Origin: a virus
Virus genome (UHGV): UHGV-1366919
DNA: 64,000 bases
Strand: one strand, 5' to 3'
Positions within the stretch are counted from its first letter, which is position 1; each line of letters begins with the position of its first letter. The position numbers and the translations under genes are program-made. Below the pieces are notes generated by a model. That model had not been told where the DNA came from and did not search any database. It saw nothing but the letters and a program-made list of their open reading frames with translations. Below are positions 6,666-49,711 of the stretch, piece after piece.

Positions 6666-7784
6666 TTATATTTGTAAGTGCTTAGAAATTAAATCTTTAA
6701 TTTGTTGATTGTTCTTTTTCCAATCATTTTCCCAAACTTCAATTAATTTGATACCATTTTCTTTACAAGCTTTTCGTTTATTCTTGTGATAACCTGGTTC
6801 TTTCTCTTCGTGAAATTGATGCCAATATTCACCATTATATTCAAAAGCTAATTTAAGTTCGGGAAGATAAATGTCCAATTCTTTTCCGCCAATAAATTTT
6901 CGAGTATTTTCTAAAATCTTGCCAGAATAAAGAGATTTAATATATTGGCAAAGCTCTTTTTCACCCTTAGAACGTTGTATCGCAATGGCACAATTAGGGC
7001 AACCTCTTCCGCTTAAATGAGCATAAGGAGCTTGTTTAAAAATATAATTACATTTATTACATTTAATTATAATTTTCTTATGAGAATGATTATAAGCAGA
7101 TAACGAATAATCATACCTATCTTTATCATGTACTTTTTCAGCTTTTTTAATAAAAGCTTGTAAAGTAGATATACGATTTAAATTTCGACATTTAATGCAT
7201 CCAACACCTTTAAGATGCTGTTTAGGTGTTTGTTTAAAAATATGGCCGCACTTATTACATTTAATAGTAACTTTTATAAGATAACCCTTATAAAGGGTTG
7301 AAGAATAATCAAATCGATTTTTTCCATGAATTTCTTCTGCCTTTTTAATAAATTCATCTATTGATAAATGCTGACGTTCCTTTCCACATTCTGGACAACC
7401 TGCACCGTTTAAATGATTTCCAGCTTTTTGCTCAAATATACTATCATGATAAAGACATTTGATTTTAACATTAGTATCATTATTAATATAGTTGACAAAA
7501 GAATAATCATAAATTCCTTTGCCATGAACAGATTCAGCTTTTTGTATAAATTCTTGAAGAGTTAATCTCGATTTTTCTGCATTTTTTGTTACTGCACATT
7601 TTGGACAGCCATGTCCATACCAATGCATATATGCAGCTTGTTCAAAGGTATGACCACATTTATTACATTTTATTATAAGCTTGGCTTTAGAACCCTGGTA
7701 AACTGATAGAGAATAGTCATACCTATCAGGACCATGCTTTTTTATGGCTTTTTCAATAAACTTTTCAGTTGTAAACTTTACCAT
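6666..7784 (-). CDS. free-standing homing-endonuclease-like protein (paralog 1)
   Basis: 372 aa. About five repeats of the unit FI.KA..HG.KYDYS...Y.N....I.C..HG.F.Q....HL.G.GC..C. C-terminal ELDIYLPELKLAFEYNGEYWH...GIKLIEVW module. Confidence 0.65.
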   Translation of the reverse strand: MVKFTTEKFIEKAIKKHGPDRYDYSLSVYQGSKAKLIIKCNKCGHTFEQAAYMHWYGHGCPKCAVTKNAEKSRLTLQEFIQKAESVHGKGIYDYSFVNYINNDTNVKIKCLYHDSIFEQKAGNHLNGAGCPECGKERQHLSIDEFIKKAEEIHGKNRFDYSSTLYKGYLIKVTIKCNKCGHIFKQTPKQHLKGVGCIKCRNLNRISTLQAFIKKAEKVHDKDRYDYSLSAYNHSHKKIIIKCNKCNYIFKQAPYAHLSGRGCPNCAIAIQRSKGEKELCQYIKSLYSGKILENTRKFIGGKELDIYLPELKLAFEYNGEYWHQFHEEKEPGYHKNKRKACKENGIKLIEVWENDWKKNNQQIKDLISKHLQI

Positions 7785-7789
7785 AAATA

Positions 7790-7834
7790 AAAAATCGCAT
7801 ATATGCCATTATTTGACATATATGCGATTTTTGC
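7790..7834. terminator. hairpin (13-bp stem) serving rIIB on the minus strand
   Basis: atcgcatatatg...catatatgcgat with an 11-nt loop, T-run on the minus strand. Confidence 0.5.
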
Positions 7835-7841
7835 TTAAAAA

Positions 7842-9002
7842 TTAAAGAGTCACAATAAACCGGCTAATTGAGCCTGGAGCCGTAGACACCGAATATCCCA
7901 AACGTAGGACCAAAGCCAGCATGGCAGCTCGAGAGATCTTATTCTTTCGACCAACACTGCCGCAAAGCTGGGCAATATTAGTTCCTTGAATTATAGTGGG
8001 TCCTCCCAGAAAAACTGGAGACAGAGTACCGTCTTCCCTGTTAACGGAATGATTCTGAATATTTCGTTCAATAGCTTCCCGAGTCTTGGAAATGTTGGCA
8101 GGACTGCACATTTCATCAATTATTCCTTGATTAGAAGCTTCAACATTAACCGGAGTACGATCCTTGGAACATTCCTTAACGTCAATGCCCTCAACCTCTA
8201 CATCAGGAGAAGTATAAGCTTCCTTAATTTCATTAAGGACTTTATATTTGCTTACCCGGCACTTTTGACATTCACAATCAGTAGGAACTGAAACAACATC
8301 TTGAGGATTAACTTCTACAGCAACTACGCGCCTTCCAAAACCCTTAGCATAATCATAAGATCCAACATGCAATCCGGCACTACACCAGTTATTTCGATTT
8401 GCATCAACATCTGCAACTACTACTTCAATGACATCGCCGGGATTATTTCGAATTTGGTAATGCCCGTTTACTTTACCTTGAAGCACTCTGGTTTCGGCAT
8501 TACCATGAAGCGAATACATATCTTCTCCAACACCCTTATAGGCAATAAAGGTACCTTCGGAAGTAATAGGCAATTCCTGATAAGAAAGGAAGTCATAAAG
8601 CTCTTCTCTAGAAGTTTCGGAAGGATTAGCCATCAAGTTATCAATAAACTTAAAGTAATGGGTAAAATCAGTACAACCAGACTTCCAAAGAGAAATAAGC
8701 TTTTTTTGAAGACATTTGGGAAGAATCTGAGTCTTATAAGAAGCAATAGTAGTAATTACACCATTTTCATCTCGTTCAACAAATTGGAGATTATCGTAAT
8801 CTTTAATTGTTTCAGAAACGGAATTAATGATATAAGAAGTGGTATTTTCCTTAAGAAGCCTGAGAAGAGTTTTTTCATCATTGGCCATTACCGCATCGAC
8901 AATATCAGTATAGCGAACATCATCGGGAGTAATCTTAACTGCTCGACCATCAACAAAGAAGGTCCAGCCTGAGGCATTCATAATATATGGAATAGAATTC
9001 AT
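7842..9002 (-). CDS. rIIB: rIIB-like protein
   Basis: Segments HYFKFIDNLMANPSETSREELYDFL...ITSEGTFIAYKGV and CSAGLHVGSYDYAKGF...VNPQDVVSVP align with T4 rIIB (FYFPFLENLLENPSQKAVSRLFDFL...ITEDGYFYAWKVV; CSYGLHLCSKDYVDGF...VNPADVVAVP). Confidence 0.8.
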   Translation of the reverse strand: MNSIPYIMNASGWTFFVDGRAVKITPDDVRYTDIVDAVMANDEKTLLRLLKENTTSYIINSVSETIKDYDNLQFVERDENGVITTIASYKTQILPKCLQKKLISLWKSGCTDFTHYFKFIDNLMANPSETSREELYDFLSYQELPITSEGTFIAYKGVGEDMYSLHGNAETRVLQGKVNGHYQIRNNPGDVIEVVVADVDANRNNWCSAGLHVGSYDYAKGFGRRVVAVEVNPQDVVSVPTDCECQKCRVSKYKVLNEIKEAYTSPDVEVEGIDVKECSKDRTPVNVEASNQGIIDEMCSPANISKTREAIERNIQNHSVNREDGTLSPVFLGGPTIIQGTNIAQLCGSVGRKNKISRAAMLALVLRLGYSVSTAPGSISRFIVTL

Positions 9003-9013
9003 ATTTTGTTTAA

Positions 9014-11371: not shown

Positions 11372-11395
11372 GCTTAAATTACAATAACAAAATTA

Positions 11396-12301
11396 CTATA
11401 ATTTTTCTCTAATTTTCTGGAGGTGTTCAGATATTTCTTTTTTAATGGTTTCTGCATTAGTTTTCCATTGGCTGTCCCAAACTTCAATTAAAGTGATTCC
11501 GGCATCTTTACAAAGTTGCCTTTTATTTTCATGATAGCCAGGTTCTTTTTCTTCATGTATTTTATGCCAGTATTCGCCATTATATTCAAGGGCAAGTTTT
11601 AATTCAGGAAGATAAATATCCAATTCTTTTCGACCAATAAATTTTCTTGTATTTTCGAGAATTTCTCCAGGATAAATTGATTTGATAAAATCGCATAACT
11701 CCTTTTCACCCTTAGATTTCTTTTCATGAAGGGCACATTTTAAACATCCCCGCCCAGTTAAGTGATTATACGCCATTTGAGCAAATTTACCATGGACAGG
11801 ACAAATAATAATCACATTTGTTTCTGCATTAATATAAATTGTTTTCGAATAATCGAATTTATGTCCATGCACTTTTTGAGCACGGTTAATAAATTCTTTT
11901 GTGGTTAAACGCTCCAATCCTACGCAACTTTTGCATCCATGCCCCCTTAAATGATTGATGGGATATTGCTGAAAAGGTCCATGAACAGGGCAAATAATAG
12001 GTACTTTTGCATGATTATTTTTATAGTTTACTTTAGAATAATCATATTTGTTCCCATGAACCTCTCTTGCTTTCTTTATAAACTTCTCAGTCGTTAAAGA
12101 TTTTGCATCAACTGCACATTTAAAACATCCCTGACCTCGTAAATGGGCTCCGGCTCTTTGTTGGAAAGGTCCATGAACCGGGCAAATAACAGTTATAGAA
12201 CTATAAGCATTTTTATAATTTACTTCAGAATAATCAAAAAAGTCTCCATGTATTTTTCTAGCCCTGTCAATAAAAATTTCAGTGGTTATTCTGTTGGGCA
12301 T
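11396..12301 (-). CDS. free-standing homing-endonuclease-like protein (paralog 2)
   Basis: 301 aa. Four zinc-ribbon-like repeats (CPVHGPF.Q...HLRG.GC..C) and the C-terminal ELDIYLPELKLALEYNGEYWH module. Inserted between rIIA and GroEL. Confidence 0.65.
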   Translation of the reverse strand: MPNRITTEIFIDRARKIHGDFFDYSEVNYKNAYSSITVICPVHGPFQQRAGAHLRGQGCFKCAVDAKSLTTEKFIKKAREVHGNKYDYSKVNYKNNHAKVPIICPVHGPFQQYPINHLRGHGCKSCVGLERLTTKEFINRAQKVHGHKFDYSKTIYINAETNVIIICPVHGKFAQMAYNHLTGRGCLKCALHEKKSKGEKELCDFIKSIYPGEILENTRKFIGRKELDIYLPELKLALEYNGEYWHKIHEEKEPGYHENKRQLCKDAGITLIEVWDSQWKTNAETIKKEISEHLQKIREKL

Positions 12302-12309
12302 AATAGTTT

Positions 12310-12354: not shown

Positions 12355-12376
12355 TTTCGGTTATCATGATTACAAA

Positions 12377-13981
12377 TCACTTTTCAGATTGTTCATCAAC
12401 CAAAAATGTTTCTGTTGTTAGAATCAAACCTGCCGATGCAGCGGCGTTTTCAATTGCGCAACGACATACACTAAATGGATCAATAATTCCCGCTTCTAAC
12501 ATGTCTACTAACTTTTGCGTCTTAATATCAAACCCAATACTGCCTTTAGCTTTTGCGACCTTTTCGATGATAACATCCGGCCGTTCAACTCCGGCATTCT
12601 CAAGAAGAGTCTTAAGAGGAATGTCAAGAACCTTTCGCATCAGGTTAATACCAGCATTAAAAGATTCATCCCCTGTTTCAAACTTAATAGACTTATTCTC
12701 TTTAATCTTAGCAAGAACAGATCCTCCCCCTGGAATAACTCCGGATCGTAAAGCTGCTTGACAGGCACATACCGCATCATCTACCCGGTCCTTAATTTCA
12801 TTTAATTCAGATTCAGAATTACCTCCGATATTAAGAACACATACTCCTTGGGCAAGCTTGGCAATTCGCTTATTAAGCACATCTTCTTCCCATGTGCCGG
12901 GACTGCAATTATCTCGTTCCTCCTTAAGCAAATCAATATGTTCTTTAAGCCTTTGAGGATTTCCTCCGCCTTTTAAGAAAGTTGTATATCGTTTATCACA
13001 AACAATCTTTTCACAGGTGGCAAAATCTTCCTCTCTAATAGAATTAAAATCACGTGAAAGAAGTTCAGTAAAATATGTACCTCCTAAAGTAATTTCAAGA
13101 TCTTCCATTTCCCTCTTCATGCCGTCTCCATATCCTGGACACTTAATGGCACAAATGTTAATAATGCCTTTAATCTTATTAATGACAAGAGTTTGAAGAA
13201 CTTCGGATTCAATATCCGGAGCGATAATAAACAAAGGCCTTCCGCGAAGTTCTTTAGTATTAAAGACTTTCTGAAGAATAGGCATAATTTGCTGATTATT
13301 TGTCAATTTAATTCCAGATAAAAGAATTAAGGGATTTTCAAGAATACATTCTTGTTTAGTCGTATTATTGACAAAATAAGAACTCATCCAGCCTCGAGGA
13401 ACTCGTAAACCTGCAATAAACTGAGAAGAAGATTCATTGCTCCTGCTGTCATTAATAGTAATGGAACCATCCAAACCTACTTTTTCAACAGCTTCAGAAA
13501 CAAGATGTGCAATTTCTTTATCCCAGTTGGTAGAAACTAAAGCAATTTGGTGAATCTGTTCTGGAGAACATTCCTGCTTAATATTTTCTTTAATATAGTT
13601 GGCAATTGTCTTTGCCGCTGAAATAACTCCGCGTTGAATTGAAATCGGATTATAACCTGTTTCAATCAGCTTCATGCCTTCAGATGCAATAGCCTCAGTG
13701 AGGATTGCGCTGGTACTGGTCCCATCACCAGCCTGGTGCGCTGATTGCTCGGATGCTTGACGAATAATATCTGCACCCATTTTTTCAAGTACATCAGGCG
13801 GATTTACATGGCGAGCTACTGTAACGCCGTCTTTTGTAATATATGTCGCATTACCCATTCGATATATTACATTTCTACCGCCAGGCCCGAGCGTCGAAGA
13901 AACTGCATTAGCAAGTTTCTTTACACCATTAAGCAGTTTCTTCCTGCCTTCATTTCCCATATAAATGTTTTGTTGAATCAT
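12377..13981 (-). CDS. groEL: phage-encoded GroEL-family (Hsp60) chaperonin
   Basis: 534 aa. TLGPGGRNVI, ITKDGVTVAR, AGDGTSTSAILTEAI and VIPGGGSVLAK match GroEL TLGPKGRNVV, ITKDGVSVAR, AGDGTTTATVLAQAI and VVAGGGVALIR. No C-terminal GGM tail. Confidence 0.9.
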   Translation of the reverse strand: MIQQNIYMGNEGRKKLLNGVKKLANAVSSTLGPGGRNVIYRMGNATYITKDGVTVARHVNPPDVLEKMGADIIRQASEQSAHQAGDGTSTSAILTEAIASEGMKLIETGYNPISIQRGVISAAKTIANYIKENIKQECSPEQIHQIALVSTNWDKEIAHLVSEAVEKVGLDGSITINDSRSNESSSQFIAGLRVPRGWMSSYFVNNTTKQECILENPLILLSGIKLTNNQQIMPILQKVFNTKELRGRPLFIIAPDIESEVLQTLVINKIKGIINICAIKCPGYGDGMKREMEDLEITLGGTYFTELLSRDFNSIREEDFATCEKIVCDKRYTTFLKGGGNPQRLKEHIDLLKEERDNCSPGTWEEDVLNKRIAKLAQGVCVLNIGGNSESELNEIKDRVDDAVCACQAALRSGVIPGGGSVLAKIKENKSIKFETGDESFNAGINLMRKVLDIPLKTLLENAGVERPDVIIEKVAKAKGSIGFDIKTQKLVDMLEAGIIDPFSVCRCAIENAAASAGLILTTETFLVDEQSEK

Positions 13982-14003
13982 GATTTACAATTATTATAGC
14001 ATG
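13978..14003. repeat. copy B of imperfect 26-bp direct repeat flanking the HEG at 13978..15069
   Basis: tcatgatttacaattattatagcatg. 21/26 identical to 15066..15091 tcacgatttttaatcattatagcacg. Both copies contain TGcTATAAT and end at a start codon (GroEL ATG / HEG GTG). Confidence 0.6.
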
Positions 14004-15069
14004 TTTCTTTGATAAACTTTTTTAATTTTTCCTTATTCTTTCGCCACTGAGTATCTAAAATTTCTATTAATTTTATACCTTTTTTCTCACAATCTTTTTT
14101 CTTTTGAACATGATAGCCTGGATATTTTTCTTCCTTTAACTTATGATGGTAATCACCGTTGTATTCAAAGGCTAGATTTAATTCAGGAAGATAAACATCA
14201 AGTTCTTTTTTTCCAATAATATCTCTTGGGTTTTCTTGAACCTCGCCTGGATAAATTGATTTAATATATTGACAAAGTTCTATTTCACCTTTAGATCTTT
14301 TTGATGCCGCTAAGCATTTAGGGCAACCGCTTCCGCGTAGATGCGTATTGGGCAACTGTAAAAATGGGCCATGTTTTTTACAAGTTATAATAATTTTTGT
14401 TTTTGCATTTTTATAAGCTACCAAAGAATAATCATACTTGTCTCCGTGAGTAGCTCTAGCTTTTTCTATAAATGCTTCAATAGTTCTCTTATTATTTCCG
14501 GCACAAAATGGGCAGCCGGAGCCTGAAAAATGCTTATCAGGGCGTTGTTCAAAAACTCCATGTATGGGACATATAATTTTTACTTTTGTTCTTTTATTTT
14601 TATAAATTACTAAAGAATAATCATATTTGGTTCCATGAACTTCAATAAATCTTTTTCTAATCTCTTCCTCAGTTAAAAACTGATTTTTAATTGCACATTT
14701 TTTACATCCTTTTCCTATTAAATGGCTTGATGGATCTTGCTTAAGAGTACAACCACATTTATTACATTTTATGATTACCTCGGTTGTTGAATTTATATAA
14801 TCAACTAAAGAATAATCATATCGGCCTTTCCCATGAATTTCTTCAGCTTTTTCTATAAATTCTTCTGTAGTCCTGTTAAATCCTTTACATTTAGGACAAC
14901 CATGGCCCATTAAATGAATGTTGGGAATTTGCTCAAAGTAGCCATGTATGGGACAAAATATTTTAATTAATGTTTTTGTGTTAAAATATACAACTTCAGA
15001 ATAACCATACTTATTGCCATGTATTTCAATAGCTTTTTTAATAAACTCTTTAGTTGTTAATCTTTTCAC
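13978..15069 (-). CDS. free-standing homing-endonuclease-like protein (paralog 3), GTG start, overlaps GroEL start codon
   Basis: 363 aa. Five repeat units and the C-terminal ELDVYLPELNLAFEYNGDYHH module. Its 3' end overlaps the GroEL ATG (ATGA overlap). Confidence 0.65.
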   Translation of the reverse strand: MKRLTTKEFIKKAIEIHGNKYGYSEVVYFNTKTLIKIFCPIHGYFEQIPNIHLMGHGCPKCKGFNRTTEEFIEKAEEIHGKGRYDYSLVDYINSTTEVIIKCNKCGCTLKQDPSSHLIGKGCKKCAIKNQFLTEEEIRKRFIEVHGTKYDYSLVIYKNKRTKVKIICPIHGVFEQRPDKHFSGSGCPFCAGNNKRTIEAFIEKARATHGDKYDYSLVAYKNAKTKIIITCKKHGPFLQLPNTHLRGSGCPKCLAASKRSKGEIELCQYIKSIYPGEVQENPRDIIGKKELDVYLPELNLAFEYNGDYHHKLKEEKYPGYHVQKKKDCEKKGIKLIEILDTQWRKNKEKLKKFIKETCYNNCKS

Positions 15070-15091
15070 GATTTTTAATCATTATAGCACG
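15066..15091. repeat. copy A of imperfect 26-bp direct repeat immediately 5' of the HEG start
   Basis: See 13978..14003. Confidence 0.6.
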
Positions 15092-15651: not shown

Positions 15652-15663
15652 ATCAATATAAAT

Positions 15664-20936: not shown

Positions 20937-21268
20937 AATTCTTTAATTTCTTCGGGAAGAACTTTTTTACGAAGCAAACTTTCTTTAAACCATTTGAAGT
21001 TTTTAATAGAAAACCAGCTAAATTTTTCATCAGGCTTAAAAAATTCTTTCTTAAAAGATAGAAGATCGTTAAATATTTCCACCCTCATCTGATTATAAAA
21101 TTTATCATCTGTAACTACAATAATTTGACCATTTTCCTTTTCATAAAGAGTCAAAATATCTCCTTCTGTTTGACCAAAATAAATTTCTTTGGCGTTAAAC
21201 TTATATGTTATTCCATCAGATCTATTGACAATAGTCCGATTAATACAGTCTTTACAGTCTTTATCCAT
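20933..21268 (-). CDS. hypothetical protein
   Basis: 111 aa. Confidence 0.35.
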   Translation of the reverse strand: MDKDCKDCINRTIVNRSDGITYKFNAKEIYFGQTEGDILTLYEKENGQIIVVTDDKFYNQMRVEIFNDLLSFKKEFFKPDEKFSWFSIKNFKWFKESLLRKKVLPEEIKEL

Positions 21269-30163: not shown

Positions 30164-30221
30164 TTTTAAATTTAAAATAAATTTTTCCTAAACTTAAAAA
30201 AGTGTTTTAATTAATTTTAAA

Positions 30222-30899
30222 ATGATATTAAAATTAACAGAAAAAAATAGCTTTGTAATTTCTATAAATGATAAACGTTATAAATTATTTAAAAAGATTT
30301 TTAATTATTATCAATTACCTTTACCTAAACTGTTTAATGGAGTTAAACATAATAATCCTGTTTTAGGATGTTTATTAAGTCATTACAATATTTTAAAATT
30401 AGCAACATTATGGTCTTTACCTTATATATTTGTTTTTGAAGATGATGTATTACCAAATAAAAATATTATTCATTACCTGAATGAAGCCTTAAAAAACGTT
30501 CCAGATAATTTTAATATCTTAAAATTAGAAAATATATATTTTAATAATGAATATGATAATAATATATTATCTGAAAATAATTGGATTAAACATTGTAAAA
30601 ATGCTCCAATAATAGGAAGAGGAACTGGGGCAATTGTTATTAATATAACATCATCTTTTCAATTAATTTAATTAATTGAAAAGATGATCCCAAATATTAC
30701 ACCAATTGATGTAATACTAGAATTAGCAAATAAAATATTTCATAATTTTAATATGTATATTTCAAAAAATATTTTATTTGTACAACATAATCTACATAAA
30801 GAAAAAACTATTCATAATAATTTTATGAATAATTCATTAAAAAGAATTAATCCTAATTTAGGAATAATTTCAGATTTTGAACCAAATATATTTGAATAA
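30222..30899 (+). pseudogene. family-25 glycosyltransferase interrupted by an in-frame TAA (ORFs 30222..30671 and 30684..30899 share one frame)
   Basis: GCLLSHYNIL...VFEDDV and GRGTGAIVI motifs of GT25 in the first ORF. Homology continues (PIDVIL) in the second ORF in the same reading frame after a single stop. Confidence 0.5.
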
Positions 30900-31703: not shown

Positions 31704-32432
31704 TTGAGACTTCTTTTTTGTATGAATGTAACTATTATTAGTATGGAACAAAAAGAACGAATTAAAAGAATTCAAAAAGCTTTGAATGTCAACGCAGATG
31801 GTATTATTGGAGATAAAACTCTTACAGCTATTGAAGGGCTGCTGAATTTAAATAAACCCATAGAGGATAACATGGGATATTCCGTAGTCATAAGTATAGG
31901 TCATTCTACTGCAGATAAAGGCGCAGTAGCATCGGATGGTCATATTGCCGAATATGACTATAATAAAAAGCTGGCAGATATTATTAAAAAGGAACTTGAA
32001 AGTACAAAAAGTCTTTCTGTTCATGTCGTTAATCGCTTAACTGACGGAGGAGGGAAAGGTGTTTCTGCTTCCGTTAAAGCTATAAACATGTATAAAAGTG
32101 ATTGTGCTATTGAGCTTCATGCAAATGCCTATAATGGTACTGCTTCTGGCTCTGAAGTTCTTTATTGGCATACTTCAACTAAAGGCAAGAAACTTGCGAC
32201 CGACCTTCAAGAAGCTATTATTAAAGTTTTAAATCTTCCAAATAGAGGTATTAAGCCATTATCCGGTGAAGATCGAGGTGGGGGAATTCTTAAAGGAACA
32301 GTTGCGCCGACAGTAATAACTGAACCGTTTTTCATCGATAATCCTAAGGACCTTAAATTAGCTGAAGATAAAATTGAACAGTTAGGAGTAGCTATGGCTA
32401 ATGCTATTATCAAATATCTTTATACAAATTAG
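31704..32432 (+). CDS. endolysin: PG-binding domain + N-acetylmuramoyl-L-alanine amidase (Amidase_3 type); TTG start in track
   Basis: IQKALNVNADGIIGDKTLTAI (peptidoglycan-binding repeat). GHSTADKGA...ELHANAYNG...GSEVLYW (Amidase_3 signatures). Confidence 0.7.
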   Translation: MRLLFCMNVTIISMEQKERIKRIQKALNVNADGIIGDKTLTAIEGLLNLNKPIEDNMGYSVVISIGHSTADKGAVASDGHIAEYDYNKKLADIIKKELESTKSLSVHVVNRLTDGGGKGVSASVKAINMYKSDCAIELHANAYNGTASGSEVLYWHTSTKGKKLATDLQEAIIKVLNLPNRGIKPLSGEDRGGGILKGTVAPTVITEPFFIDNPKDLKLAEDKIEQLGVAMANAIIKYLYTN

Positions 32433-32450
32433 GATGATTTCTATCATCCT
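32431..32450 (+). terminator. short hairpin after endolysin gene
   Basis: aggatgat ttct atcatcct. No strong T-run, so weak. Confidence 0.3.
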
Positions 32451-32464
32451 TAAATATACTCTAT

Positions 32465-33994
32465 ATGAACCTTTCTTTATTGACAGTATTATGTCATGGC
32501 AAAAATAATAGCCAACTTAAAGAATTATTAAAAAATAATAAAATATTAAATTTTATTAATACTTTTATTAAAGATAAACCTTATTATGAAACACCCTTTA
32601 GATTTTTAAAATTGTTGAGTAAAAATGCAACATTACCTGCCTGTATTATATGTGGAAATATTATTTCTTATAGTATTTGGAATAGACGTAATAATGCTAA
32701 ATTTTGTTCTAAAACTTGCAAATATTCTAAAGAAGGTAAAGAAAATACTAGAAAAAATATTGAAAAAACATTAATTGAAAAATATAAGGTTAAAAATATT
32801 TTACAACATAAAAAGTTTAAAGAAAAACAAGAATTAACTTGTTTAGCAAAATACGGAACTAAATTTTATTCAAAAACTTCAGAATGTAAAGAAAAAGTTA
32901 AGAAGACGTCATTAGAAAAATTTGGTACAAATAATGTGATGTTCAATAAAAAGGTTTTAAAAAATATAAAAAATAATAATTTATTAAAATTTGGGGTTGA
33001 ATGGCCTTTATCAGATAAAACTATTCATAAAAAAACTATGAATAGTCTTGTTAAAAAACATTTAGAAAAGCTTAAAAAGTTTAATTTAACTTTGTTAGAT
33101 GAATATCAATCCACAAAAGAATACTATAATTTTAAATGTGCTACATGTGGTAATACATTTAAAGATCATTTAAAAAATGGTAGAATTCCTATATGCAAAC
33201 ATTGCTTTCCTTCTAATACTTCTATTGGGGAAAAAGAATTATCAAACTTTATTAAACAATTTTCTTCTAATATTAGCTTAAATGATAGAACATTAATAAA
33301 TCCTTTAGAATTAGATATTGTTATTCCAGAAAAACATTTAGCAATAGAATTTAATGGGCTATATTGGCATTCTGAAGAACATGGTAAAAATGAAAATTAT
33401 CATATTAATAAATCATTATTATGTAAATCTAAAAACTTTAATTTAATTCATATATTTGAAGATGAATGGCTTTTTCAAAAAAATATAATAAAAGGTATTA
33501 TAAAAGATTATTTTAATAGCAAAAAAATAAAAACAAATTTTATTACATTTAAAAAAATCGATAATAAATTAGCTAAAAAATTTAATGAAAAATATAATAT
33601 TCTTGGACATATTACTACAAAAAATAATTTTGGACTTTTTTATAAAAATAGATTAATACATGTATTATCTGTTGGAAAACCAAGATTTAATAAAATTTAC
33701 AAATATGAAATTTATCGATTATCCTCAACATTTAATTTTAAAATTGAAAATTATTTTAAAGTTTTAATTGATAATTTACCTTTATCAATTAAAGAATCAT
33801 TAATATTTTATGAAAATAAACGTTTTCCTATTATTAATAAAACATTATTAGATAATTTGATATTTTTATCAAATTCTAAGCCAAGCTATTTTTTTGTCAA
33901 AAATAAAAATAGATATTCAAAATATAATAAAATAAATAGATTTGATTATAAAATTTGGGATTGCGGATCAACACTTTATCAGGTTAAATATTAA
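32465..33994 (+). CDS. divergent homing-endonuclease-like protein (paralog 6) with C-terminal extension
   Basis: 509 aa. Cys-pair zinc-ribbon repeats. Shares GEKELSNFIKQF...ELDIVIPEKHLAIEFNGLYWH...FNLIHIFEDEW with the other paralogs. Confidence 0.5.
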   Translation: MNLSLLTVLCHGKNNSQLKELLKNNKILNFINTFIKDKPYYETPFRFLKLLSKNATLPACIICGNIISYSIWNRRNNAKFCSKTCKYSKEGKENTRKNIEKTLIEKYKVKNILQHKKFKEKQELTCLAKYGTKFYSKTSECKEKVKKTSLEKFGTNNVMFNKKVLKNIKNNNLLKFGVEWPLSDKTIHKKTMNSLVKKHLEKLKKFNLTLLDEYQSTKEYYNFKCATCGNTFKDHLKNGRIPICKHCFPSNTSIGEKELSNFIKQFSSNISLNDRTLINPLELDIVIPEKHLAIEFNGLYWHSEEHGKNENYHINKSLLCKSKNFNLIHIFEDEWLFQKNIIKGIIKDYFNSKKIKTNFITFKKIDNKLAKKFNEKYNILGHITTKNNFGLFYKNRLIHVLSVGKPRFNKIYKYEIYRLSSTFNFKIENYFKVLIDNLPLSIKESLIFYENKRFPIINKTLLDNLIFLSNSKPSYFFVKNKNRYSKYNKINRFDYKIWDCGSTLYQVKY

Positions 33995-34070
33995 ACATAA
34001 ACATGTTTAAAAATATTCTTCGATTTATCGTCTTTATCGCTTATAAATGGATTGAAGGAACTAAACGAAA

Positions 34071-36886: not shown

Positions 36887-38824
36887 TTAGAACCAGTTAG
36901 GTAAATCTCTGACACCAAATTGGTCAAAGCTATTCGGAAGGGTAATCTGGTTTCGATATTCATCTAAACTAAGGGTTTCTCCAAAATCTAAAAGATTCAT
37001 TTGCTTTTTTTGTTTAAAATCATTACTTGATGTAATGGTATTAATTTGACCTCTGCTAAATCCAGCCATCACTCCGATAAATGGAGATTCCATATCCAAC
37101 TCTTTATAAAGAGTATTAGCCCAATCAGTCCTGGGATCCATTTCCCATCGTTTTTTAATAACAAGAGGAATATTATTGACGTCTTTTTTATCAACAATAA
37201 GATAATTGTTAATTACTTTCTTATAAAGAGCAAAAAGACTCCAACATAAAGCCAAAACATGGTCATCATGGAATCCTGGTTGAGCACACCATCGAATATT
37301 ATTACTTTGATTACGAATGCAAGTAAATGTTCTTAATTCTTCAATAGTTTTTTTATCATAAATTTTGACAACTCGACGGTCATGAATATAATATTTCATA
37401 TTATGAACGCCTTCGCTTTTTGTCACTCTATTAGTAATAATACCCGGGAGAACTTTTCGCCCTGGGGTTTGCGGCCCGTATCCTGAACCGAAATTAATAA
37501 ATCTCGGATAATTATTTTCATAGAACAGCTTTTCACAAACATGGGCCCCAGGGCCGTTTCGTTCAACTGACATAATAGGAGAATACCACTGTTTTGCAAT
37601 TTCCAAGACTTTAGCCGCAAAAGTAGTAATATCCATTGTATTAGTTGAATATCTGGCGACCTGCTCAATATTCAGGGGGTCAGTAATATCAAAAATTTGA
37701 ATAACTGAATAGTCTTGTCCTACGCCTTCAGAAGTATCAACTCCCATGGTATAGATTTTTTCGGAATCAGGTTTTTTCCAAATATAATAATTTCCATCTT
37801 CTAATATGTTTAATGGTTCAATTAATTCTTTTGTGAACTTATCAAACATGTTAGGATCAAATGGAGAGCCCGAATTATTAAGAAACCTACATTCATATTC
37901 TTGAGTAAATGTATCATAGCTCATTGTGCTCAATTCAGCATCTTTCCAAGCTTCTGTTCTGCCAGGGAAATCAAACCAAAAAGCTTTCTCTAACGCAAAA
38001 TCGTTTCTTCCTTCTTCCGCCTTAGATACCAATTCATGAAATTTATTACCTACGCCCTTAGGAGTAGATGCCACAATAAGCTTTGCATTTTTATTATTAT
38101 TAAAACGAGAAGCAAGAGTAGGAGTAACAGCAGCCCAGAAAGCTTCAGCATCTTTAGGAGGAATAATAGCAAACTCGTCAAGAAGAAGAACATCAATAGC
38201 TAAACCACGAATAGCATCAGGTGAAGTAGCTGATGTTAAGATACGAGAACCATTCGCTAATGTAAAGAATGTTTTATTAAATTCAAGAACACCGCCCTTA
38301 ATCCAGTTTTCCATCATTTGGAAAGCCAGACGAACACGCATAAAAATTTCGGTTGCTGTTGACTGTTTGTTAGCGACAATACATACAGTTTGGTCAGGAT
38401 GAAATACTGCAACCCATGTAGCAACGATAGTCATTAAGGTCGTATTATGGGAAAGAATACCGTTGGCATAATATAAATGATTTGAATCTTTAGCTAATTC
38501 AAAATCATACATATTTTCCCATTCAGATGTTGCAATTACATCAACAACTTTATCTCCTCCATAATTAGTTGCAATATCTTCGCCAAGTGAATCTTTAGCA
38601 AAGACTTGCTCATCTTTCATAGTAATTAAAATATGATTATCGGCACATTCGAGAATATTACCTGTCTTGAATTTAATAATATATTTTTGATAAGGGACAG
38701 TTTTATTAATAGTTTTAATATCTGTCCATCCCTGATTTGAAGAAATTTGCCAATTTGAAGCATCAAGAACTTCTTCAAATTTTCTAAAAATTGTTTTAGA
38801 TAAATCTTTAAATTTTTTAAGCAT
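36887..38824 (-). CDS. terL: large terminase subunit, C-terminal ORF (intein C-half + ATPase remainder + nuclease)
   Basis: After HN at residues 126-127, TTLMTIVATWVAVF...DAIRGLAIDVLLLDEFAIIPP aligns with T4 gp17 TTVVAIFLAHFVCF...[20 protein letters not shown]. Confidence 0.8.
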   Translation of the reverse strand: MLKKFKDLSKTIFRKFEEVLDASNWQISSNQGWTDIKTINKTVPYQKYIIKFKTGNILECADNHILITMKDEQVFAKDSLGEDIATNYGGDKVVDVIATSEWENMYDFELAKDSNHLYYANGILSHNTTLMTIVATWVAVFHPDQTVCIVANKQSTATEIFMRVRLAFQMMENWIKGGVLEFNKTFFTLANGSRILTSATSPDAIRGLAIDVLLLDEFAIIPPKDAEAFWAAVTPTLASRFNNNKNAKLIVASTPKGVGNKFHELVSKAEEGRNDFALEKAFWFDFPGRTEAWKDAELSTMSYDTFTQEYECRFLNNSGSPFDPNMFDKFTKELIEPLNILEDGNYYIWKKPDSEKIYTMGVDTSEGVGQDYSVIQIFDITDPLNIEQVARYSTNTMDITTFAAKVLEIAKQWYSPIMSVERNGPGAHVCEKLFYENNYPRFINFGSGYGPQTPGRKVLPGIITNRVTKSEGVHNMKYYIHDRRVVKIYDKKTIEELRTFTCIRNQSNNIRWCAQPGFHDDHVLALCWSLFALYKKVINNYLIVDKKDVNNIPLVIKKRWEMDPRTDWANTLYKELDMESPFIGVMAGFSRGQINTITSSNDFKQKKQMNLLDFGETLSLDEYRNQITLPNSFDQFGVRDLPNWF

Positions 38825-38963
38825 TTTTAAAGGTAATTTTGTTAATAAACTTTTTAAGCTTATTTTGAATTTTAATTAATTTAAAAAAGATTCCAACGTT
38901 AATCTTAAAGGATAAATTTAAAGGCTTATAGCGCACGCAAATTGGCACACTTGGAGAAAGACA
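38444..38963 (-). other. mini-intein inserted in terminase Walker-A (GK|C...HN|TT), disrupted by a 1-nt frameshift in an A5 run near 38822-38830
   Basis: Block A-like CLSPSVPICV directly after SRQWGK. Block B GNILECADNHILIT. Blocks F/G MYDFELAKDSNHLYYANGILSHN followed by Thr. Extein resumes in register with T4 gp17. Confidence 0.7.
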
Positions 38964-39272
38964 TTTGCCCCACTGACGAGAGCTTATAAGCAGTGTCTTC
39001 TTATTGCGCTGAATTGTTTTTAAGATTTTTTTCTGTTTTTCAAAAAGGGTAATATGTTCTTTTTGACCGCTTAACGCAGAAATAATATAAAAGTGATTTT
39101 CAGCAAAATAGATAATATCTTTCTTACACCGGGCAATCTCTTTAATCATCGCCGGAGTATAGGTATAAGTTGTAGTATTCTTAGGTAAATTAGGATTATT
39201 AAGATAATATTCCTCATTTGCTACTACTTCTTCACCCCTGAAATCAATGATCTTTGTAGCTTTTTTAGGCAT
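38817..39272 (-). CDS. terL: large terminase subunit, N-terminal ORF ending inside intein
   Basis: CKKDIIYFAENHFYI...TLLISSRQWGKC aligns with T4 gp17 CRDDIVYFAETYCAI...CNLSRQLGKTT. Stop codon overlaps the ATG of the next ORF in another frame. Confidence 0.75.
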   Translation of the reverse strand: MPKKATKIIDFRGEEVVANEEYYLNNPNLPKNTTTYTYTPAMIKEIARCKKDIIYFAENHFYIISALSGQKEHITLFEKQKKILKTIQRNKKTLLISSRQWGKCLSPSVPICVRYKPLNLSFKINVGIFFKLIKIQNKLKKFINKITFKNA

Positions 39273-41486: not shown

Positions 41487-41504
41487 TTTAAAAATAAAAT
41501 TAAA

Positions 41505-41541
41505 AAGGGAGTAAGGATGTTTATCCTTACTCCCTTTTTAA
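41505..41541 (+). terminator. intrinsic terminator
   Basis: gggagtaagga/tccttactccc 11-bp stem followed by ttttta. Confidence 0.6.
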
Positions 41542-41542
41542 T

Positions 41543-41591
41543 AATTTGATTGCATAAACATGCACTTTTTATATGTTTATGCAATCAAATT
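41543..41591. repeat. perfect 19-bp inverted repeat (aatttgattgcataaacat / atgtttatgcaatcaaatt) with 11-nt loop
   Basis: Read directly. Lies between convergent genes next to the terminator above. Confidence 0.55.
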
Positions 41592-41597
41592 ATTTTA

Positions 41598-42206
41598 TTA
41601 ATTAATCCATCTAATTATTGGTTCATTTTTTATCTCCTTTTGCCACACATACATACAATAAGCAGCCGCACCACTATTTTTAAAATTATCGGTTCCTTTA
41701 CCGCAACCTTGCCTGTTTACATATACATATACATATTTTGGTGGATATTTTTTAAAAAAATTATAACGTTTGGCTGATTCAAGAAAGGTGAGTTTCATAA
41801 ACATAATGACCAAACCATTATTTTTAACAGTTTTTATTGCTTTTTCTGTAATTTCAACTGCATATCTGTAAGGAGGATTTGTAAAAATACAATCAAATTG
41901 ATTATCCCATTTATTAGTTTTTAAAAAATCAATACCAGTTTCTTCCCCATATCCTCTGTCAATTAAATCAGAAGAATAAACTGAATATCCATTTTCTTTT
42001 AATATTTTGGATATCGAACCTATACCACAGCATGGTTCTAAAATATTATTAGGAATTATTAAATTAGTATTTTTAGCTGCTTTTAAAAATAATTTTATTG
42101 ATTCAGGATGAGTACAATAAAAATCATATTCTTCTACTTCAATCTCCTTTTTTCGATGATTTACTGAATAAAATCCTGAATTTCCGCCTGTCCAATCTTT
42201 AATCAT
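41598..42206 (-). CDS. DNA N6-adenine methyltransferase
   Basis: EPCCGIGS (SAM-binding motif I) and FTNPPY (motif IV). Confidence 0.65.
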   Translation of the reverse strand: MIKDWTGGNSGFYSVNHRKKEIEVEEYDFYCTHPESIKLFLKAAKNTNLIIPNNILEPCCGIGSISKILKENGYSVYSSDLIDRGYGEETGIDFLKTNKWDNQFDCIFTNPPYRYAVEITEKAIKTVKNNGLVIMFMKLTFLESAKRYNFFKKYPPKYVYVYVNRQGCGKGTDNFKNSGAAAYCMYVWQKEIKNEPIIRWIN

Positions 42207-42228
42207 AAATGTATTTTAAATAATTTTT

Positions 42229-42711
42229 ATGAAATTATATGAAGTAAAAAAATTATCTTTAAAAGTATTAAAAGAATATGCTTCTAATGATGCTATTTTT
42301 ACTTCTATTTCTGGTAAAAAAGGAATAAAAGGTTCTGGGAAAAAAGCCGATAATATTGCTTTAGGAACTACTCGGGCATATCAAGATAATACATATCTTA
42401 CAAAATATGAAAAACAATTGCCCCATTTATCTAAACTTACCCAACAATTAAAAATTGGAGAAAATTCTGGAGCGCTGGAAGTGATAGGGCCGGCATTGGA
42501 AGAACTTCTTGTTCTGATTAAAGCTACAAAGCCGCTAACTTCTTATAAAGGCTTAGGATGGAAATTACCTCTTGGCGACAATATCTATTTGACTCAATCT
42601 GGTAAACAATACTTTATAAAGTATAATGGGCCTAAAGAAAAAGATCCTAATAAAAATGATTTAACCTCTACTGAACATCATGACAAAGCCATACTGTCCT
42701 CTCCTGCCTAA
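42229..42711 (+). CDS. hypothetical protein
   Basis: 160 aa. Confidence 0.4.
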   Translation: MKLYEVKKLSLKVLKEYASNDAIFTSISGKKGIKGSGKKADNIALGTTRAYQDNTYLTKYEKQLPHLSKLTQQLKIGENSGALEVIGPALEELLVLIKATKPLTSYKGLGWKLPLGDNIYLTQSGKQYFIKYNGPKEKDPNKNDLTSTEHHDKAILSSPA

Positions 42712-43501: not shown

Positions 43502-43506
43502 AATTA

Positions 43507-43541
43507 AAAAAGCTGAATCAAATTAATGATTCAGCTTTTTT
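43507..43541 (+). terminator. intrinsic terminator (member of a three-copy hairpin family)
   Basis: aaaagctgaatca...tgattcagctttttt. Embedded in the 3' end of the convergent HEG ORF. Confidence 0.5.
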
Positions 43542-44618
43542 AATCTCTTCTTGAATTAAAAGTTTTATTTGATCTTTATTTTTCTTCCATTTACTTTCCC
43601 AAATTTCTATCAATGTAATTCCCCTTTCAATACATTGATTTCTTTTATTTTCATGATAACCCAGATTTCGATCTTCGTGTAATTTATGCCAGTAATCTCC
43701 ATTATATTCAAAGGCTAATTTTAATTCGGGGAGATAAATATCAAGCTCTAATTGATTATCAAGTTGATTTCTAGAATTTTTTATAATTTTTCTTGAATAT
43801 ATCGAATTAATATATTCAAAAAGTTCTTTTTCACCTTTAGATCTTTTCGAAGCTTTTACACATTTAATACAGCCACTTCCATTTAAATGAATATATGCTC
43901 TTTGTCGAAAGACACCATGCCTTGGACAAATAATATTCACATAATCACGAGCACTTTTATAGATAACTAAGGAATAATTATATTTGTCTCCATGAACTTC
44001 TTGAGCTCTTTTAATAAATTCTTCAGTTGTTAAAAATTGCTTTTCTCTTTTACATTCTGGACATTCATTGCCTTGTAAATGTGACCCTGCATGTTGTCGA
44101 AATAATCCATGCTTAGGACATATTATTGTTATATGATTTTTTACGCCATTATAAATCACTTTAGAATAATCATAATAATTTCCATGCACTTTTTTAGCTT
44201 TTTCAATAAATTCTTCTCTTGATAAAAGATCTTTTATTTTAGCACAATAAGGACACCCACTTCCATTTAAATGGCTGCCAGCCATTTGTTCAAATTTATG
44301 CCCGCATTTATTACAAATAATCCAAATTTTTGATTTACAATTTACGTATATCGATATTGAATAATTATACTTATCACCATGAACTTTTCTTGCTTTTTCT
44401 ATAAATTTTTCTGTTGTTAACTGTGCCGTGGGAATACATTTAGGACATCCACATCCTCTTAAATGTTCTGATGCTTTTTGCCAAAAATATCCATGCTCAG
44501 GACAACCAATTTCTATTTTTGCAAGACTACTTTTATATTCAACTCTTGAATAATCATATTTGTCACCATGTATTTCTTTAGCCCTTTGTATAAATTCTTC
44601 AGTTGTTAGCTTTTTCAT
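43518..44618 (-). CDS. free-standing homing-endonuclease-like protein (paralog 4)
   Basis: 366 aa. Five repeat units (CPEHGYFWQ...HLRGCGCPKC etc.). C-terminal ELDIYLPELKLAFEYNGDYWH...GITLIEIW module. Confidence 0.65.
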   Translation of the reverse strand: MKKLTTEEFIQRAKEIHGDKYDYSRVEYKSSLAKIEIGCPEHGYFWQKASEHLRGCGCPKCIPTAQLTTEKFIEKARKVHGDKYNYSISIYVNCKSKIWIICNKCGHKFEQMAGSHLNGSGCPYCAKIKDLLSREEFIEKAKKVHGNYYDYSKVIYNGVKNHITIICPKHGLFRQHAGSHLQGNECPECKREKQFLTTEEFIKRAQEVHGDKYNYSLVIYKSARDYVNIICPRHGVFRQRAYIHLNGSGCIKCVKASKRSKGEKELFEYINSIYSRKIIKNSRNQLDNQLELDIYLPELKLAFEYNGDYWHKLHEDRNLGYHENKRNQCIERGITLIEIWESKWKKNKDQIKLLIQEEIKKAESLI

Positions 44619-44725
44619 AACTAAACTTTAATTTTATATAATAATTCTCAATTTTATTTGGTACTAAATTAATAGTAAGTGTATTAATGATTTTTATACA
44701 ATCTATACGCTAATAAATAATTACT

Positions 44726-45220
44726 ATGAAAAAGTTTAAAGTAAAAGAACTTAGATTTTCTAATTTACTCGTTGAAGATATAAATGTTCCCAAAAATCTT
44801 ATTGTTCGAATTAAGAATATTCCTAGATCTAAAAAGGCTTTACTTGAAGAAGTTGCTAAGAAAATTAGCGAAAAATATGGAAAAGATGTTAAACACTTTA
44901 TTCTTGAAGATTTAGAAATAGAAGGGCCAAAGAATTTTGCTAAAAATCCTACTATTACAAAGCGTCTTCAAAAACGTCGAAAAGTTTTGAAAAACTATAT
45001 TGATGAAATAGGTGAAGAAGATAGTCAATTAAGTTATGAAGTTACAAAAGCTATTATAAATGTTTTTGGTGAAAAATTTTTAGACAAATATAGTGTTAAT
45101 ATTCGCGATCAAATTGAAAAATTTAGTAAAAAATTGCGGGTCTTAAAACACTTGCTGATAGGCCAAAAGATGATCCTTATAAAAAGCGGTTGGATAACTG
45201 GAGGATTGGTTAACCTTTAA
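44726..45220 (+). CDS. hypothetical protein
   Basis: 164 aa, lysine-rich. Confidence 0.4.
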   Translation: MKKFKVKELRFSNLLVEDINVPKNLIVRIKNIPRSKKALLEEVAKKISEKYGKDVKHFILEDLEIEGPKNFAKNPTITKRLQKRRKVLKNYIDEIGEEDSQLSYEVTKAIINVFGEKFLDKYSVNIRDQIEKFSKKLRVLKHLLIGQKMILIKSGWITGGLVNL

Positions 45221-45221
45221 A

Positions 45222-45260
45222 AGAAAAAGCTAAGTCATTGATCTGACTTAGCTTTTTCTT
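45222..45260 (+). terminator. intrinsic terminator (hairpin family member)
   Basis: aaagctaagtca...tgacttagctttttc. Confidence 0.55.
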
Positions 45261-45289
45261 TAAATTCTTCTAATGTTAATTTTCTCATA

Positions 45290-45335
45290 TAAATTTTAAG
45301 GGTTTCCATAGAAAATATGGAAACCCTTAAAATTA
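45290..45335 (-). terminator. perfect 15-bp hairpin downstream of tail-sheath gene
   Basis: ttaagggtttccata gaaaa tatggaaacccttaa. Confidence 0.5.
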
Positions 45336-45358
45336 TTCGGTGTTAATTTAGTGCAGTA

Positions 45359-48205: not shown

Positions 48206-48320
48206 AATATATTTTTAAGTTAAATTATTAAATCTTAGAAAGTTTAACAAAAGATATTTACATTTATAACGGCTAGTTCAGGTTCTATTTTACTTCTTGG
48301 ATAAATAAACACTCTTCAAT

Positions 48321-48349
48321 TTAGCACCAAAATAAAATCAGGATAAAAT
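48321..48349. repeat. 29-bp perfect direct repeat, copy 1 (5' of HEG 48362..49711)
   Basis: ttagcaccaaaataaaatcaggataaaat, identical to 49686..49714. Confidence 0.8.
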
Positions 48350-48361
48350 AATATCCAATTT

Positions 48362-49711
48362 ATGGCAATTAAACGACTTACGACAGAAATTTTTATAGAA
48401 AGGGCCAAAGCAAAACACGGTATAGACAGGTATGATTACTCGGCAACCAATTATACCCATTGTAATAATAAAATTATAATCAAGTGTTTAATACATAATT
48501 TAATATTTGAAACCTACCCCCATAATCATTTAAGAGGGAATGGAGGTTGCCCTCTATGTGCTAAAGAAGGACGATCTTTATCATGGCAATCTTTTTTAGA
48601 AAAAAGCATCGAAGCTCACGGGCAAAATCGATATGATTATTCATATGCTAAAAAAGAGTATAAAGGAACCAAATCAAAAATTACAATAATATGTAAAAAA
48701 TGTGGACATAGATTTGTTCAATTACCTTCTAATCATATAAAAGGCCATGGTTGTATAAATTGTGTAAATTTAGCTAAATCATTTGATAAAAATTTCTTTA
48801 TTAAAGAGGCAGAAAAGAAACATGGTATTGGGAGATATGATTACTCAAAAATAAAATATAAAAATTCATATACTCCCATTTATATTATTTGTAATAAATG
48901 TAATAAAAAATTTTATCAGCAGCCACGAATACATTTAAAAGGAATTGGATGTTCTCATTGTTATTATAAAAGTAAAACATTAACTAAGGAAGAATTTATT
49001 AAAAGAGCTGAAGAAATACATGAAAAAGGAAAATATGATTATTCTAATGTAGAATATATACAGTCTAACATTAAGATTAAAATTAAATGTAATAAATGTA
49101 ATAATATTTTTTGGCAATATCCCCATGAACATTTAAAAGCCAAAGGATGCCGAATTTGTGCAATTAAAGATATTACTGATACAAAAGAAACATTTATTAA
49201 AAAGGCAAAGAAAGTTCATAAGGATTTTTATGATTATTCAAGTATAAAATATATAAATTCTCAAACTTTAATTTATATTAATTGTCCAAAACATGGTTTT
49301 TTCGCACAACGGCCAAATGCTCATCTAAGAGGTCATGGATGTCCGAATTGTGCACTCGCTGCACAAAGATCTCGAGGAGAAATAGAACTTGGAGAATTTA
49401 TTAAATCAATTTATTCCAATAAAATTTTAAAAAATTCTAAAACACAACTTGGAAATAAAATGGAATTGGATATATATCTTCCTGAATTAAAACTCGCCAT
49501 TGAGTATAATGGCGATTATTGGCATAATTTGAAAGAGGCCAAACATCCTGGCTGCCATGAAGATAAAAGAAACCGATGTAAAGAAAGAGGAATTAAACTT
49601 ATTGAAGTTTTAGATACGGAATGGCAAAAGAATAAAGATCAAATTAAAGAATCTCTTAAAAAACAAATTGGAGAACTTATCAAAATTAGCACCAAAATAA
49701 AATCAGGATAA
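48362..49711 (+). CDS. free-standing homing-endonuclease-like protein (paralog 5) inserted between tail sheath and tail tube genes
   Basis: 449 aa. Six repeat units. C-terminal ELDIYLPELKLAIEYNGDYWH...GIKLIEVLDTEW module. Its last 8 codons (ISTKIKSG) are encoded by the flanking repeat. Confidence 0.7.
   Translation: MAIKRLTTEIFIERAKAKHGIDRYDYSATNYTHCNNKIIIKCLIHNLIFETYPHNHLRGNGGCPLCAKEGRSLSWQSFLEKSIEAHGQNRYDYSYAKKEYKGTKSKITIICKKCGHRFVQLPSNHIKGHGCINCVNLAKSFDKNFFIKEAEKKHGIGRYDYSKIKYKNSYTPIYIICNKCNKKFYQQPRIHLKGIGCSHCYYKSKTLTKEEFIKRAEEIHEKGKYDYSNVEYIQSNIKIKIKCNKCNNIFWQYPHEHLKAKGCRICAIKDITDTKETFIKKAKKVHKDFYDYSSIKYINSQTLIYINCPKHGFFAQRPNAHLRGHGCPNCALAAQRSRGEIELGEFIKSIYSNKILKNSKTQLGNKMELDIYLPELKLAIEYNGDYWHNLKEAKHPGCHEDKRNRCKERGIKLIEVLDTEWQKNKDQIKESLKKQIGELIKISTKIKSG

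Follow-up and report, generated by a model that had tools for sequence, protein, structure and literature searches.

Six genes in a 64,000-nucleotide (nt) stretch of the virus genome UHGV-1366919 (the window, meaning that whole stretch) are most probably free-standing homing endonuclease genes (HEGs) of the Hef/EDxHD (Vsr-like PD-(D/E)xK) family, lodged in intergenic gaps of a T4-like phage. The phage has a genome of about 200 kilobases (kb) and is common in the human gut. The direct evidence consists of the fold of the nuclease domain, homology to Hef, the intergenic position of the genes and, among close relatives, clean presence/absence, degeneration, gain and loss of repeated units, replacement at a locus and a short flanking tract at one gene. 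The genes are designated H1 to H6, with lengths of their products in amino acids (aa):

H1, 6666-7784, minus strand: 372 aa, between an 85-aa open reading frame (ORF) and rIIB; four units at nt 6990-7760, nuclease domain at nt 6669-6971.
H2, 11396-12301, minus strand: 301 aa, between rIIA and GroEL; three units at nt 11735-12274, nuclease domain at nt 11399-11716.
H3, 13978-15069, minus strand: 363 aa with a GTG start, directly upstream of GroEL; four units at nt 14314-15045, nuclease domain at nt 13981-14295.
H4, 32465-33994, plus strand: 509 aa, directly after an amidase endolysin; DUF7487 region at nt 32642-33205, nuclease domain at nt 33221-33514, GNAT-fold domain at nt 33521-33991.
H5, 43518-44618, minus strand: 366 aa, between a head-closure-like gene and a 164-aa ORF; four units at nt 43860-44594, nuclease domain at nt 43521-43841.
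H6, 48362-49711, plus strand: 449 aa, adjoining the tail sheath gene; five units at nt 48392-49351, nuclease domain at nt 49370-49708.

An earlier, sequence-only reading had singled out these ORFs as paralogous, intergenic and filling about 11% of the window. All six were confirmed at the same positions, each is intergenic, and together they sum to 7098 nt (11.09%). Its claim that they sit beside conserved genes stands for rIIB, rIIA, GroEL, the amidase-type endolysin, the head-closure protein and the tail sheath; no PHROG matches the gene that follows H6 (49780-51243), so the label of tail tube is unconfirmed there. No seventh copy was found within the window by tblastn with all six proteins. 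Over their full length, H1, H2, H3, H5 and H6 show pairwise identities of 46-53%, and H4 aligns with them at 36-41% identity over 100-151 aa only, essentially the nuclease core. A profile of the C-terminal module matches all six proteins at E-values from 7e-41 to 3e-51 (H1: E=8e-51), a similarity far beyond chance. The single architecture that had been proposed for the whole set is therefore correct for five genes and wrong for H4, which contains none of the tandem units and has a DUF7487 region instead. Nor is H4 the divergent paralog that it had been taken for, but a canonical Hef-type member that aligns over its whole length with Hef of phage U5. The low G+C content of this gene (19.4% vs 31.3% for the window) suggests a foreign origin.

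The Vsr/DUF559-type fold guessed earlier for the C-terminal module is confirmed by structural comparison. With Foldseek, the model of the H5 nuclease domain matches the catalytic domain of I-Bth0305I (3r3p; probability 1.00, template modelling (TM) score 0.75) and the DUF559 protein 3hrl (TM 0.79), and a profile built from the six proteins has 3r3p as its single solved-structure match (E=0.004). Pfam returned only sub-threshold matches to REase_MTES_1575 for the module of about 100 aa. All six proteins share, without exception, the candidate catalytic residues E (in GEkEL), D (ELDI), N (EYNG) and H (YWH). PHROGs 559, 681 and 3339, which carry the labels endonuclease or homing endonuclease, match at E-values down to 1e-100 (H1 against PHROG 559: E=1.6e-100). 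Because no HNH-family Pfam domain occurs in the six proteins at E<=1 and the fold is Vsr-like instead, the label ‘HNH endonuclease’ of PHROG 559 is wrong for these proteins. True Vsr very-short-patch repair enzymes were considered and ruled out, since the window proteins have no match to Pfam Vsr (PF03852) and are multidomain proteins with long arrays; the name ‘very-short-patch-repair endonuclease’ given to homologs at JGI reflects the shared fold only. The family is large: H1 matches 923 phage records, and at least 7560 protein clusters match H5.

Upstream of the nuclease domain, five of the genes encode a tandem array whose existence had also been seen from the sequence, with a core of 53-56 aa and a period of 63-70 aa. 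The unit counts first given (4-6, listed as 4, 5, 5, 5, 6) were off by one, and the actual numbers are 4, 3, 4, 4 and 5 in H1, H2, H3, H5 and H6, respectively. The units follow the consensus FI..A...HG.kYDYS.v.Y.....ki.IiC..hG..F.Q....HL.G.GCp.C, in which the first metal-ligand pair takes one of two forms, C-x2-H (CPxHG) or C-x2-C (CNKCG). Pfam assigns them to DUF4379 (up to E=6.5e-20, in H1), to DUF723 and, weakly, to CapR, and describes DUF4379 as a ‘probable treble clef zinc finger’. For H5, AlphaFold (predicted local distance difference test, pLDDT, 88.7) models four helix-plus-beta-hairpin units followed by an alpha/beta domain. Foldseek with the whole H5 model gave no informative match for the unit, its output being dominated by the nuclease and by spurious low-TM matches, so the treble clef assignment follows the Pfam description of DUF4379. 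The profile search found no match to these units in H4. Some homologs (P0095, P0118, P0120) fuse the same units to a T5orf172-type domain, which supports the view of the array as a portable module.

The closest known counterpart of H4 is Hef of the T-even phage U5, reportedly described by Sandegren, Nord and Sjoberg in 2005 as a free-standing gene between nrdA and nrdB. H4 and U5 Hef (record GenBank AY262133.2) are 25% identical over aa 13-508, near end to end (E=1e-32), and tblastn with H4 finds the hef-carrying U5 record (E=2e-21). Both proteins have an N-terminal region with Cys pairs, a core of the form ELDIxIPE...LAIExxGxYWH...YH and a C-terminal domain ending in IWDCG. In H4 the N-terminal part is a helical-repeat region that matches Pfam DUF7487 (E=2.4e-13), and the C-terminal extension of about 160 aa adopts a Mom-like GNAT fold. 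Both genes are free-standing between conserved phage genes, H4 after the endolysin gene and hef in the nrd region. The similarity of U5 Hef to H5 is confined to the nuclease core (36% over 111 aa, E=2e-11); H1, H2, H3, H5 and H6 lack the Hef N-terminal region and the GNAT-like C-terminal domain and have the zinc-finger unit array instead. On these alignments H4 is a full-length member of the Hef group, and the other five belong to it by their nuclease domain only. Hef is described as an endonuclease with cleavage sites near its own gene (PMC3322345) and with nrdB as its target (PMC3322345, PMC2988022). Of these proteins, only Hef has been shown to be active.

The sequence-only reading had pointed to a Hef-like gene reported in many copies in Campylobacter phages. 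This link holds: besides the whole-length alignment of H4 with U5 Hef, the genomes of Campylobacter fletcherviruses each match at up to 12 places, and proteins of Campylobacter F356 resemble those of the window in their weak Pfam matches to DUF4379, MTES_1575/Vsr and Mom. Several T4-related genomes thus carry more than one free-standing Hef-like gene, next to genes for structure and replication. Four Hef-like genes are known from the Dickeya phage LIMEstone1 (PMC3296691), and in the jumbo phage PA5oct five places match H1, the best of them annotated ‘putative Hef-like homing endonuclease’. Protein identity between these multi-copy Hef-like phages and the window genes does not exceed about 33%.

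Hef-type enzymes belong to the EDxHD family typified by I-Bth0305I (Taylor et al., 2011; PMC3239194), a family described between 2009 and 2011 (Dassa et al., 2009; PMC2677866; Taylor et al., 2011). I-Bth0305I (PDB 3r3p) and the window proteins share the Vsr-like fold, the conserved E, D, N and H, and the order of a DNA-binding N-terminal part and a C-terminal nuclease. They differ in that I-Bth0305I is intron-encoded and has NUMOD/helix-turn-helix motifs, whereas the window genes are free-standing and encode zinc-finger units (five genes) or DUF7487 (H4). The combination of a unit array with an EDxHD nuclease was recognized in Nucleic Acids Research in 2025 as a large, previously unrecognised group of HEGs with thousands of unannotated relatives (PMC12350094). 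These ‘CapR-like’ HEGs have the same plan as H1, H2, H3, H5 and H6, namely three to five units of about 60 aa (CapR, DUF4379, DUF723) followed by an EDxHD/Vsr-like nuclease of about 100 aa; H4, with zero units, falls outside this group. The genes described there reside in group II and group I introns, whereas those of the window are free-standing and intergenic, and the 2025 work contains no population-level data on presence/absence or unit number, both of which the relatives of the window provide. The T4 enzymes Seg (GIY-YIG) and Mob (HNH) have the same lifestyle, being intergenic beside conserved genes, variably present, and spreading by cleavage near their locus with subsequent co-conversion of the flanks (PMC2988022), but their catalytic folds are unrelated to that of the window nuclease. 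Hef (2005), the EDxHD family (2009-2011), the unit-array architecture (2025) and multi-copy Hef-like genes in T4-related phages are thus already known; new here are the population picture and the exact empty sites.

The population consists of loci (given L-numbers) from IMG/VR and human-gut metagenome contigs, many of which are 93-99% identical to the window in DNA, including the DNA flanking the genes. Genomes of these relatives measure about 195-206 kb, and the contigs of 200-206 kb look like complete genomes. No close relative is known among cultured phages: megablast with 11 kb of the window gave zero matches there, and GroEL and the tail sheath of the window phage are at most 39% identical to the versions of cultured phages. 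Of the blocks into which the collection is indexed, 2984 contain the 160-aa product of 42229-42711 without any mismatch, and 811 contain the H4 protein in this form. Against this background of 93-99% identity the HEG loci are the variable places. The presence/absence among relatives that the sequence-only reading had proposed as a homing signature was found, in the form of clean indels, pseudogenes, changes in unit number and allele replacement. The two outcomes that the reading had named as refuting it, a C-terminal module with no nuclease fold and genes conserved in place in every relative, were thus both checked and neither occurred, so its interpretation is supported.

H3 and H4 are clean indels. 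H3 is an indel of 1088 nt, present in four (L011, L012, L017, L018) and absent from seven (L001, L013, L014, L016, L020, L021, L023) of the 11 loci with both flanks; L015 also carries H3 and lies outside this count, its contig ending too early for the flank test. The gene joins GroEL by an ATGA stop/start overlap, and alignment of the junctions shows the insert to be bounded by a 24-nt imperfect direct repeat. H4-less genomes have 6 nt in place of 1571 nt, with identical breakpoints at six loci from five different contigs (L007, L008, L038, L040, L042, L044), and H4 is present in six of the 10 contexts returned for a neighbouring gene. The elements of the two junctions are:

15066..15089, minus strand: upstream copy of the H3 repeat, GTGCTATAATGATTAAAAATCGTGA, carrying a TATAAT box and the GTG start of H3.
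13978..14001, minus strand: downstream copy of the H3 repeat, ATGCTATAATAATTGTAAATCATGA, equal to the single copy of H3-less genomes and holding the GroEL ATG and the H3 stop.
32427..33997, plus strand: H4 indel, a block of 1571 nt for which H4-less genomes have 6 nt.

Since the repeat holds the TATAAT box and a start codon, the sequence in front of H3 (GTG) and of GroEL (ATG) stays the same. Within about 700 nt on each side, the only fixed differences between genomes with and without H3 are at 15069, 15075, 15076 and 15080, all in the upstream copy of the repeat. At H4 there are six fixed differences, most of them synonymous, all within the final ~77 nt of the amidase gene, next to the insert; the other ~1.1 kb on the left and the 1.6 kb on the right have none. 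Nucleotide diversity is close to zero across the amidase gene and H4 and 0.5-1.6% further to the right, in a set of genomes that was found through the exact H4 protein and is biased accordingly.

The remaining genes are found in various stages of decay and exchange. H1 exists in at least five states among the relatives, including intact (L013, L024), frameshifted (L001, L014), internally deleted (L011, L017) and interrupted by a 1353-nt TnpB element (L012, L015, L020). The element codes for a 390-aa TnpB-like protein and is inserted at 6972-6998, between the unit array and the nuclease domain. H2 alleles have two units (L001, 237 aa), three (the window) or four (L016, L019, L020; 364-365 aa), the shorter forms being in-register deletions between adjacent units at ARKIHG and ICPVHGPFQQ, and in L014 the gene is frameshifted. 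The H5 locus holds a different family member with 51% aa identity in L003 and a split pseudogene (212+90 aa) in L039. At the H6 locus, L002, L003, L038 and L042 have a 377-aa, four-unit allele that has the first ~20 and last ~28 residues in common with H6 and is 51% identical in the interior. In this material one can see invasion, fixation, decay and loss as well as replacement, the pattern expected of homing endonuclease genes and not of a core gene family.

The mechanism proposed for these genes follows the analogy with U5 Hef and I-Bth0305I. In it, the N-terminal array would place the protein on an extended DNA site close to the gene itself. The array would be formed by three to five treble-clef-type zinc-finger units in H1, H2, H3, H5 and H6 and by the DUF7487 helical-repeat region with Cys pairs in H4. 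The C-terminal Vsr-like domain, with its conserved E, D, N, H and H, would then cut a co-infecting genome without the gene, and recombinational repair from the gene-bearing genome would copy the gene and a short flank into the break. That the repeated units set the length and specificity of the target had been suggested from the sequence alone, and they may do so. A further proposal, that the ~65-aa units form a modular DNA-reading array with a fixed number of base pairs per unit, so that in-register loss, gain or swapping of units re-targets the nuclease, is rather unlikely to be correct. Material for such changes exists in this population, in H2 with two, three or four units and in the H6 locus with either a five-unit or an unrelated four-unit array. 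If modular reading were true, the family would be a natural scaffold for programmable nucleases, and these gut-phage genomes would pair arrays with their empty sites, so that the code could be read from them.

Several points weigh against homing endonuclease genes as the explanation. No substitutions in GroEL or in the upstream gene track the presence of H3 outside the duplicated junction and, because only this 24-nt junction differs, the H3 target has no independent pointer. All H4 copies found occupy one locus, and the presence/absence pattern could reflect simple deletion of dispensable genes. The position of D222 in I-Bth0305I, the last Asp of the EDxHD motif, is a His in all six proteins (H333 in H1 numbering), so the active site differs from that of the crystallised enzyme. 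U5 Hef appears to have the same His in the alignment (ETYHLMK); if this is real, the deviation would be typical of the Hef branch and no failure of EDxHD membership. Lastly, cleavage and its target sites, homing as such, the binding of zinc and a function of the units in DNA binding are inferred by analogy. The confinement of H4 to one locus, together with the many degenerate H1, H2 and H5 alleles and the loss of units by in-register deletion, would suit relics, that is, once mobile genes that are now immobile passengers without empty targets and are lost by deletion only. This is quite unlikely, as many genomes of the same population have an empty site for H3 or H4, so that targets are available. 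In addition, the identity of the H4 protein (100% across the 811 blocks, in a trough of diversity) fits recent spread better than decay, and identical H3 and H4 breakpoints are predicted by a single empty-site allele and not by repeated independent deletions.

Two other explanations assign the genes a function apart from their own spread. They may be mainly weapons in phage-phage or phage-host conflict, through marker exclusion or restriction-like attack, and H4 in particular could combine modification and restriction in a single chain, its GNAT domain acyl-modifying the phage's own adenines and its nuclease cutting unmodified DNA. Mom-restriction endonuclease fusions of jumbo phages, five of them in PA5oct, were predicted by Iyer et al. 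to combine momylation and restriction in this manner (PMC7824862). The essential Mom residues R111, S124, D149 and R151 were compared, of which D149 and R151 are known to be essential for activity (PMC13219725), and hhalign places the family motif YADRR on these two (a weak alignment, E=0.0067). Scanned on their own against Pfam, the C-terminal domains of H4 and U5 Hef had no meaningful match, so the link of H4 to Mom and GNAT proteins comes from the predicted fold and this weak profile alignment. However, the equivalent of D149 in H4 is Asn (N451), U5 Hef also having Asn at the first position, and the GG of the cofactor-loop motif IxGGAxKLL is NY in H4, so the domain appears to be degenerate, and none of the other five genes encodes a GNAT domain. 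A needed defence is also hard to square with the frequent pseudogenes and with clean absence from genomes that are near-identical and widespread, which makes a role in conflict unlikely as the main explanation, although it would be compatible with homing and does not exclude it. Highly improbable is a domesticated family of sequence-specific DNA-binding proteins (regulators, or accessories of replication or packaging) with an inactive or repurposed nuclease, in which the variation is accessory-gene turnover. Five intact paralogs are kept in one genome, each beside an important gene, and H3 overlaps the GroEL start and brings its own TATAAT copy, which could couple its expression to that of GroEL. 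Yet E, D, N, H and H are invariant in all six proteins, the prototype Hef has endonuclease activity (PMC3322345), and clean loss, frameshifts and 51%-identical swaps in genomes that are 95-99% identical are unexpected for a regulator.

A further insertion site of the family is suggested by the terminase large-subunit gene (36887-39272, minus strand), which in the window is split inside a P-loop intein (GK, then C...SHN, then TT) into two ORFs of 151 and 645 aa. These overlap by 8 nt in different frames (junction 38817-38824), and the downstream ORF has its own ATG. The junction is conserved: two independent IMG/VR contigs match the 250 nt around it at 99.6-100% identity, and of the 14 related loci that have both flanks, 13 keep the same spacing. 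L039 has a 382-aa gene (5333-6481) between the terminase halves, with a canonical EDxHD nuclease C-terminus (LIEFDGEYWHGE...ERDRIRDE). This gene would be a seventh EDxHD-type HEG, with the window in the HEG-less state at the terminase site. The split also recalls the atypically split AceL-TerL intein. The arrangement looks like a ‘fractured gene’ with a split intein of the kind reported earlier (Dassa et al., 2009; PMC2677866).

The finding is no new kind of system, but the window offers a well-resolved natural HEG life cycle, with a single nuclease family occupying six or seven sites in a very widespread human-gut phage. HEG-bearing and HEG-less alleles are both available as sequence, and mapping of target sites is straightforward because the empty sites of H3 and H4 are defined to single-base precision. 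The H2 alleles and their like are natural unit-number variants of the poorly studied DUF4379/DUF723/CapR-like array. Two database labels, ‘HNH endonuclease’ and ‘very-short-patch-repair endonuclease’, are corrected for these proteins.

Other variation was noticed in and around these loci. TnpB-like genes (IS605-family OrfB), of 256-390 aa as read from the translations, occur in some relatives and are absent from the window; relative to the window the insertions lie at 6972-6998 (inside H1), at 18830/18831 and at 21167-21205, and the elements occupy 17170-18522 in L020, 1974-3209 in L013 and 1565-2815 in L011. At ~12208-12290, between GroEL and the start of H2, there is an insertion of 4.4-5 kb in L018 (4590-9035) and L019 (1464-6449). 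Read from its sequence, it carries an IS1595-type transposase-like gene (341 aa) with a cargo of an XRE-type regulator-like gene, a small lipoprotein and membrane proteins. A seemingly interrupted GroEL in L022 (1-2531) was discarded as an assembly chimera, in which three genes of bacterial origin (murA-like, aldolase-like and one for a membrane protein) are fused to the phage GroEL at a shared KMGADI peptide; the junction is taken to be an artefact and no evidence on the host.

The relative L003/L008 lacks both a DNA methyltransferase gene (ORF 41598-42206, minus strand, 202 aa; PHROG 799, E=5.5e-57), missing within 41499-42212, and the 164-aa ORF at 44726-45220 (within 44601-45247), to which no function is assigned. 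In L042, L044 and L047 only a truncated or split form of the methyltransferase gene is present. A Glyco_transf_25-like gene (30152-30898) is split into ORFs of 149 and 71 aa (30222-30671 and 30684-30899) in the window and some relatives; elsewhere the locus holds an intact gene of 225 aa or, instead, an unrelated 178-aa ORF on the opposite strand. Nucleotide diversity peaks at this locus, reaching up to 0.20 per site.

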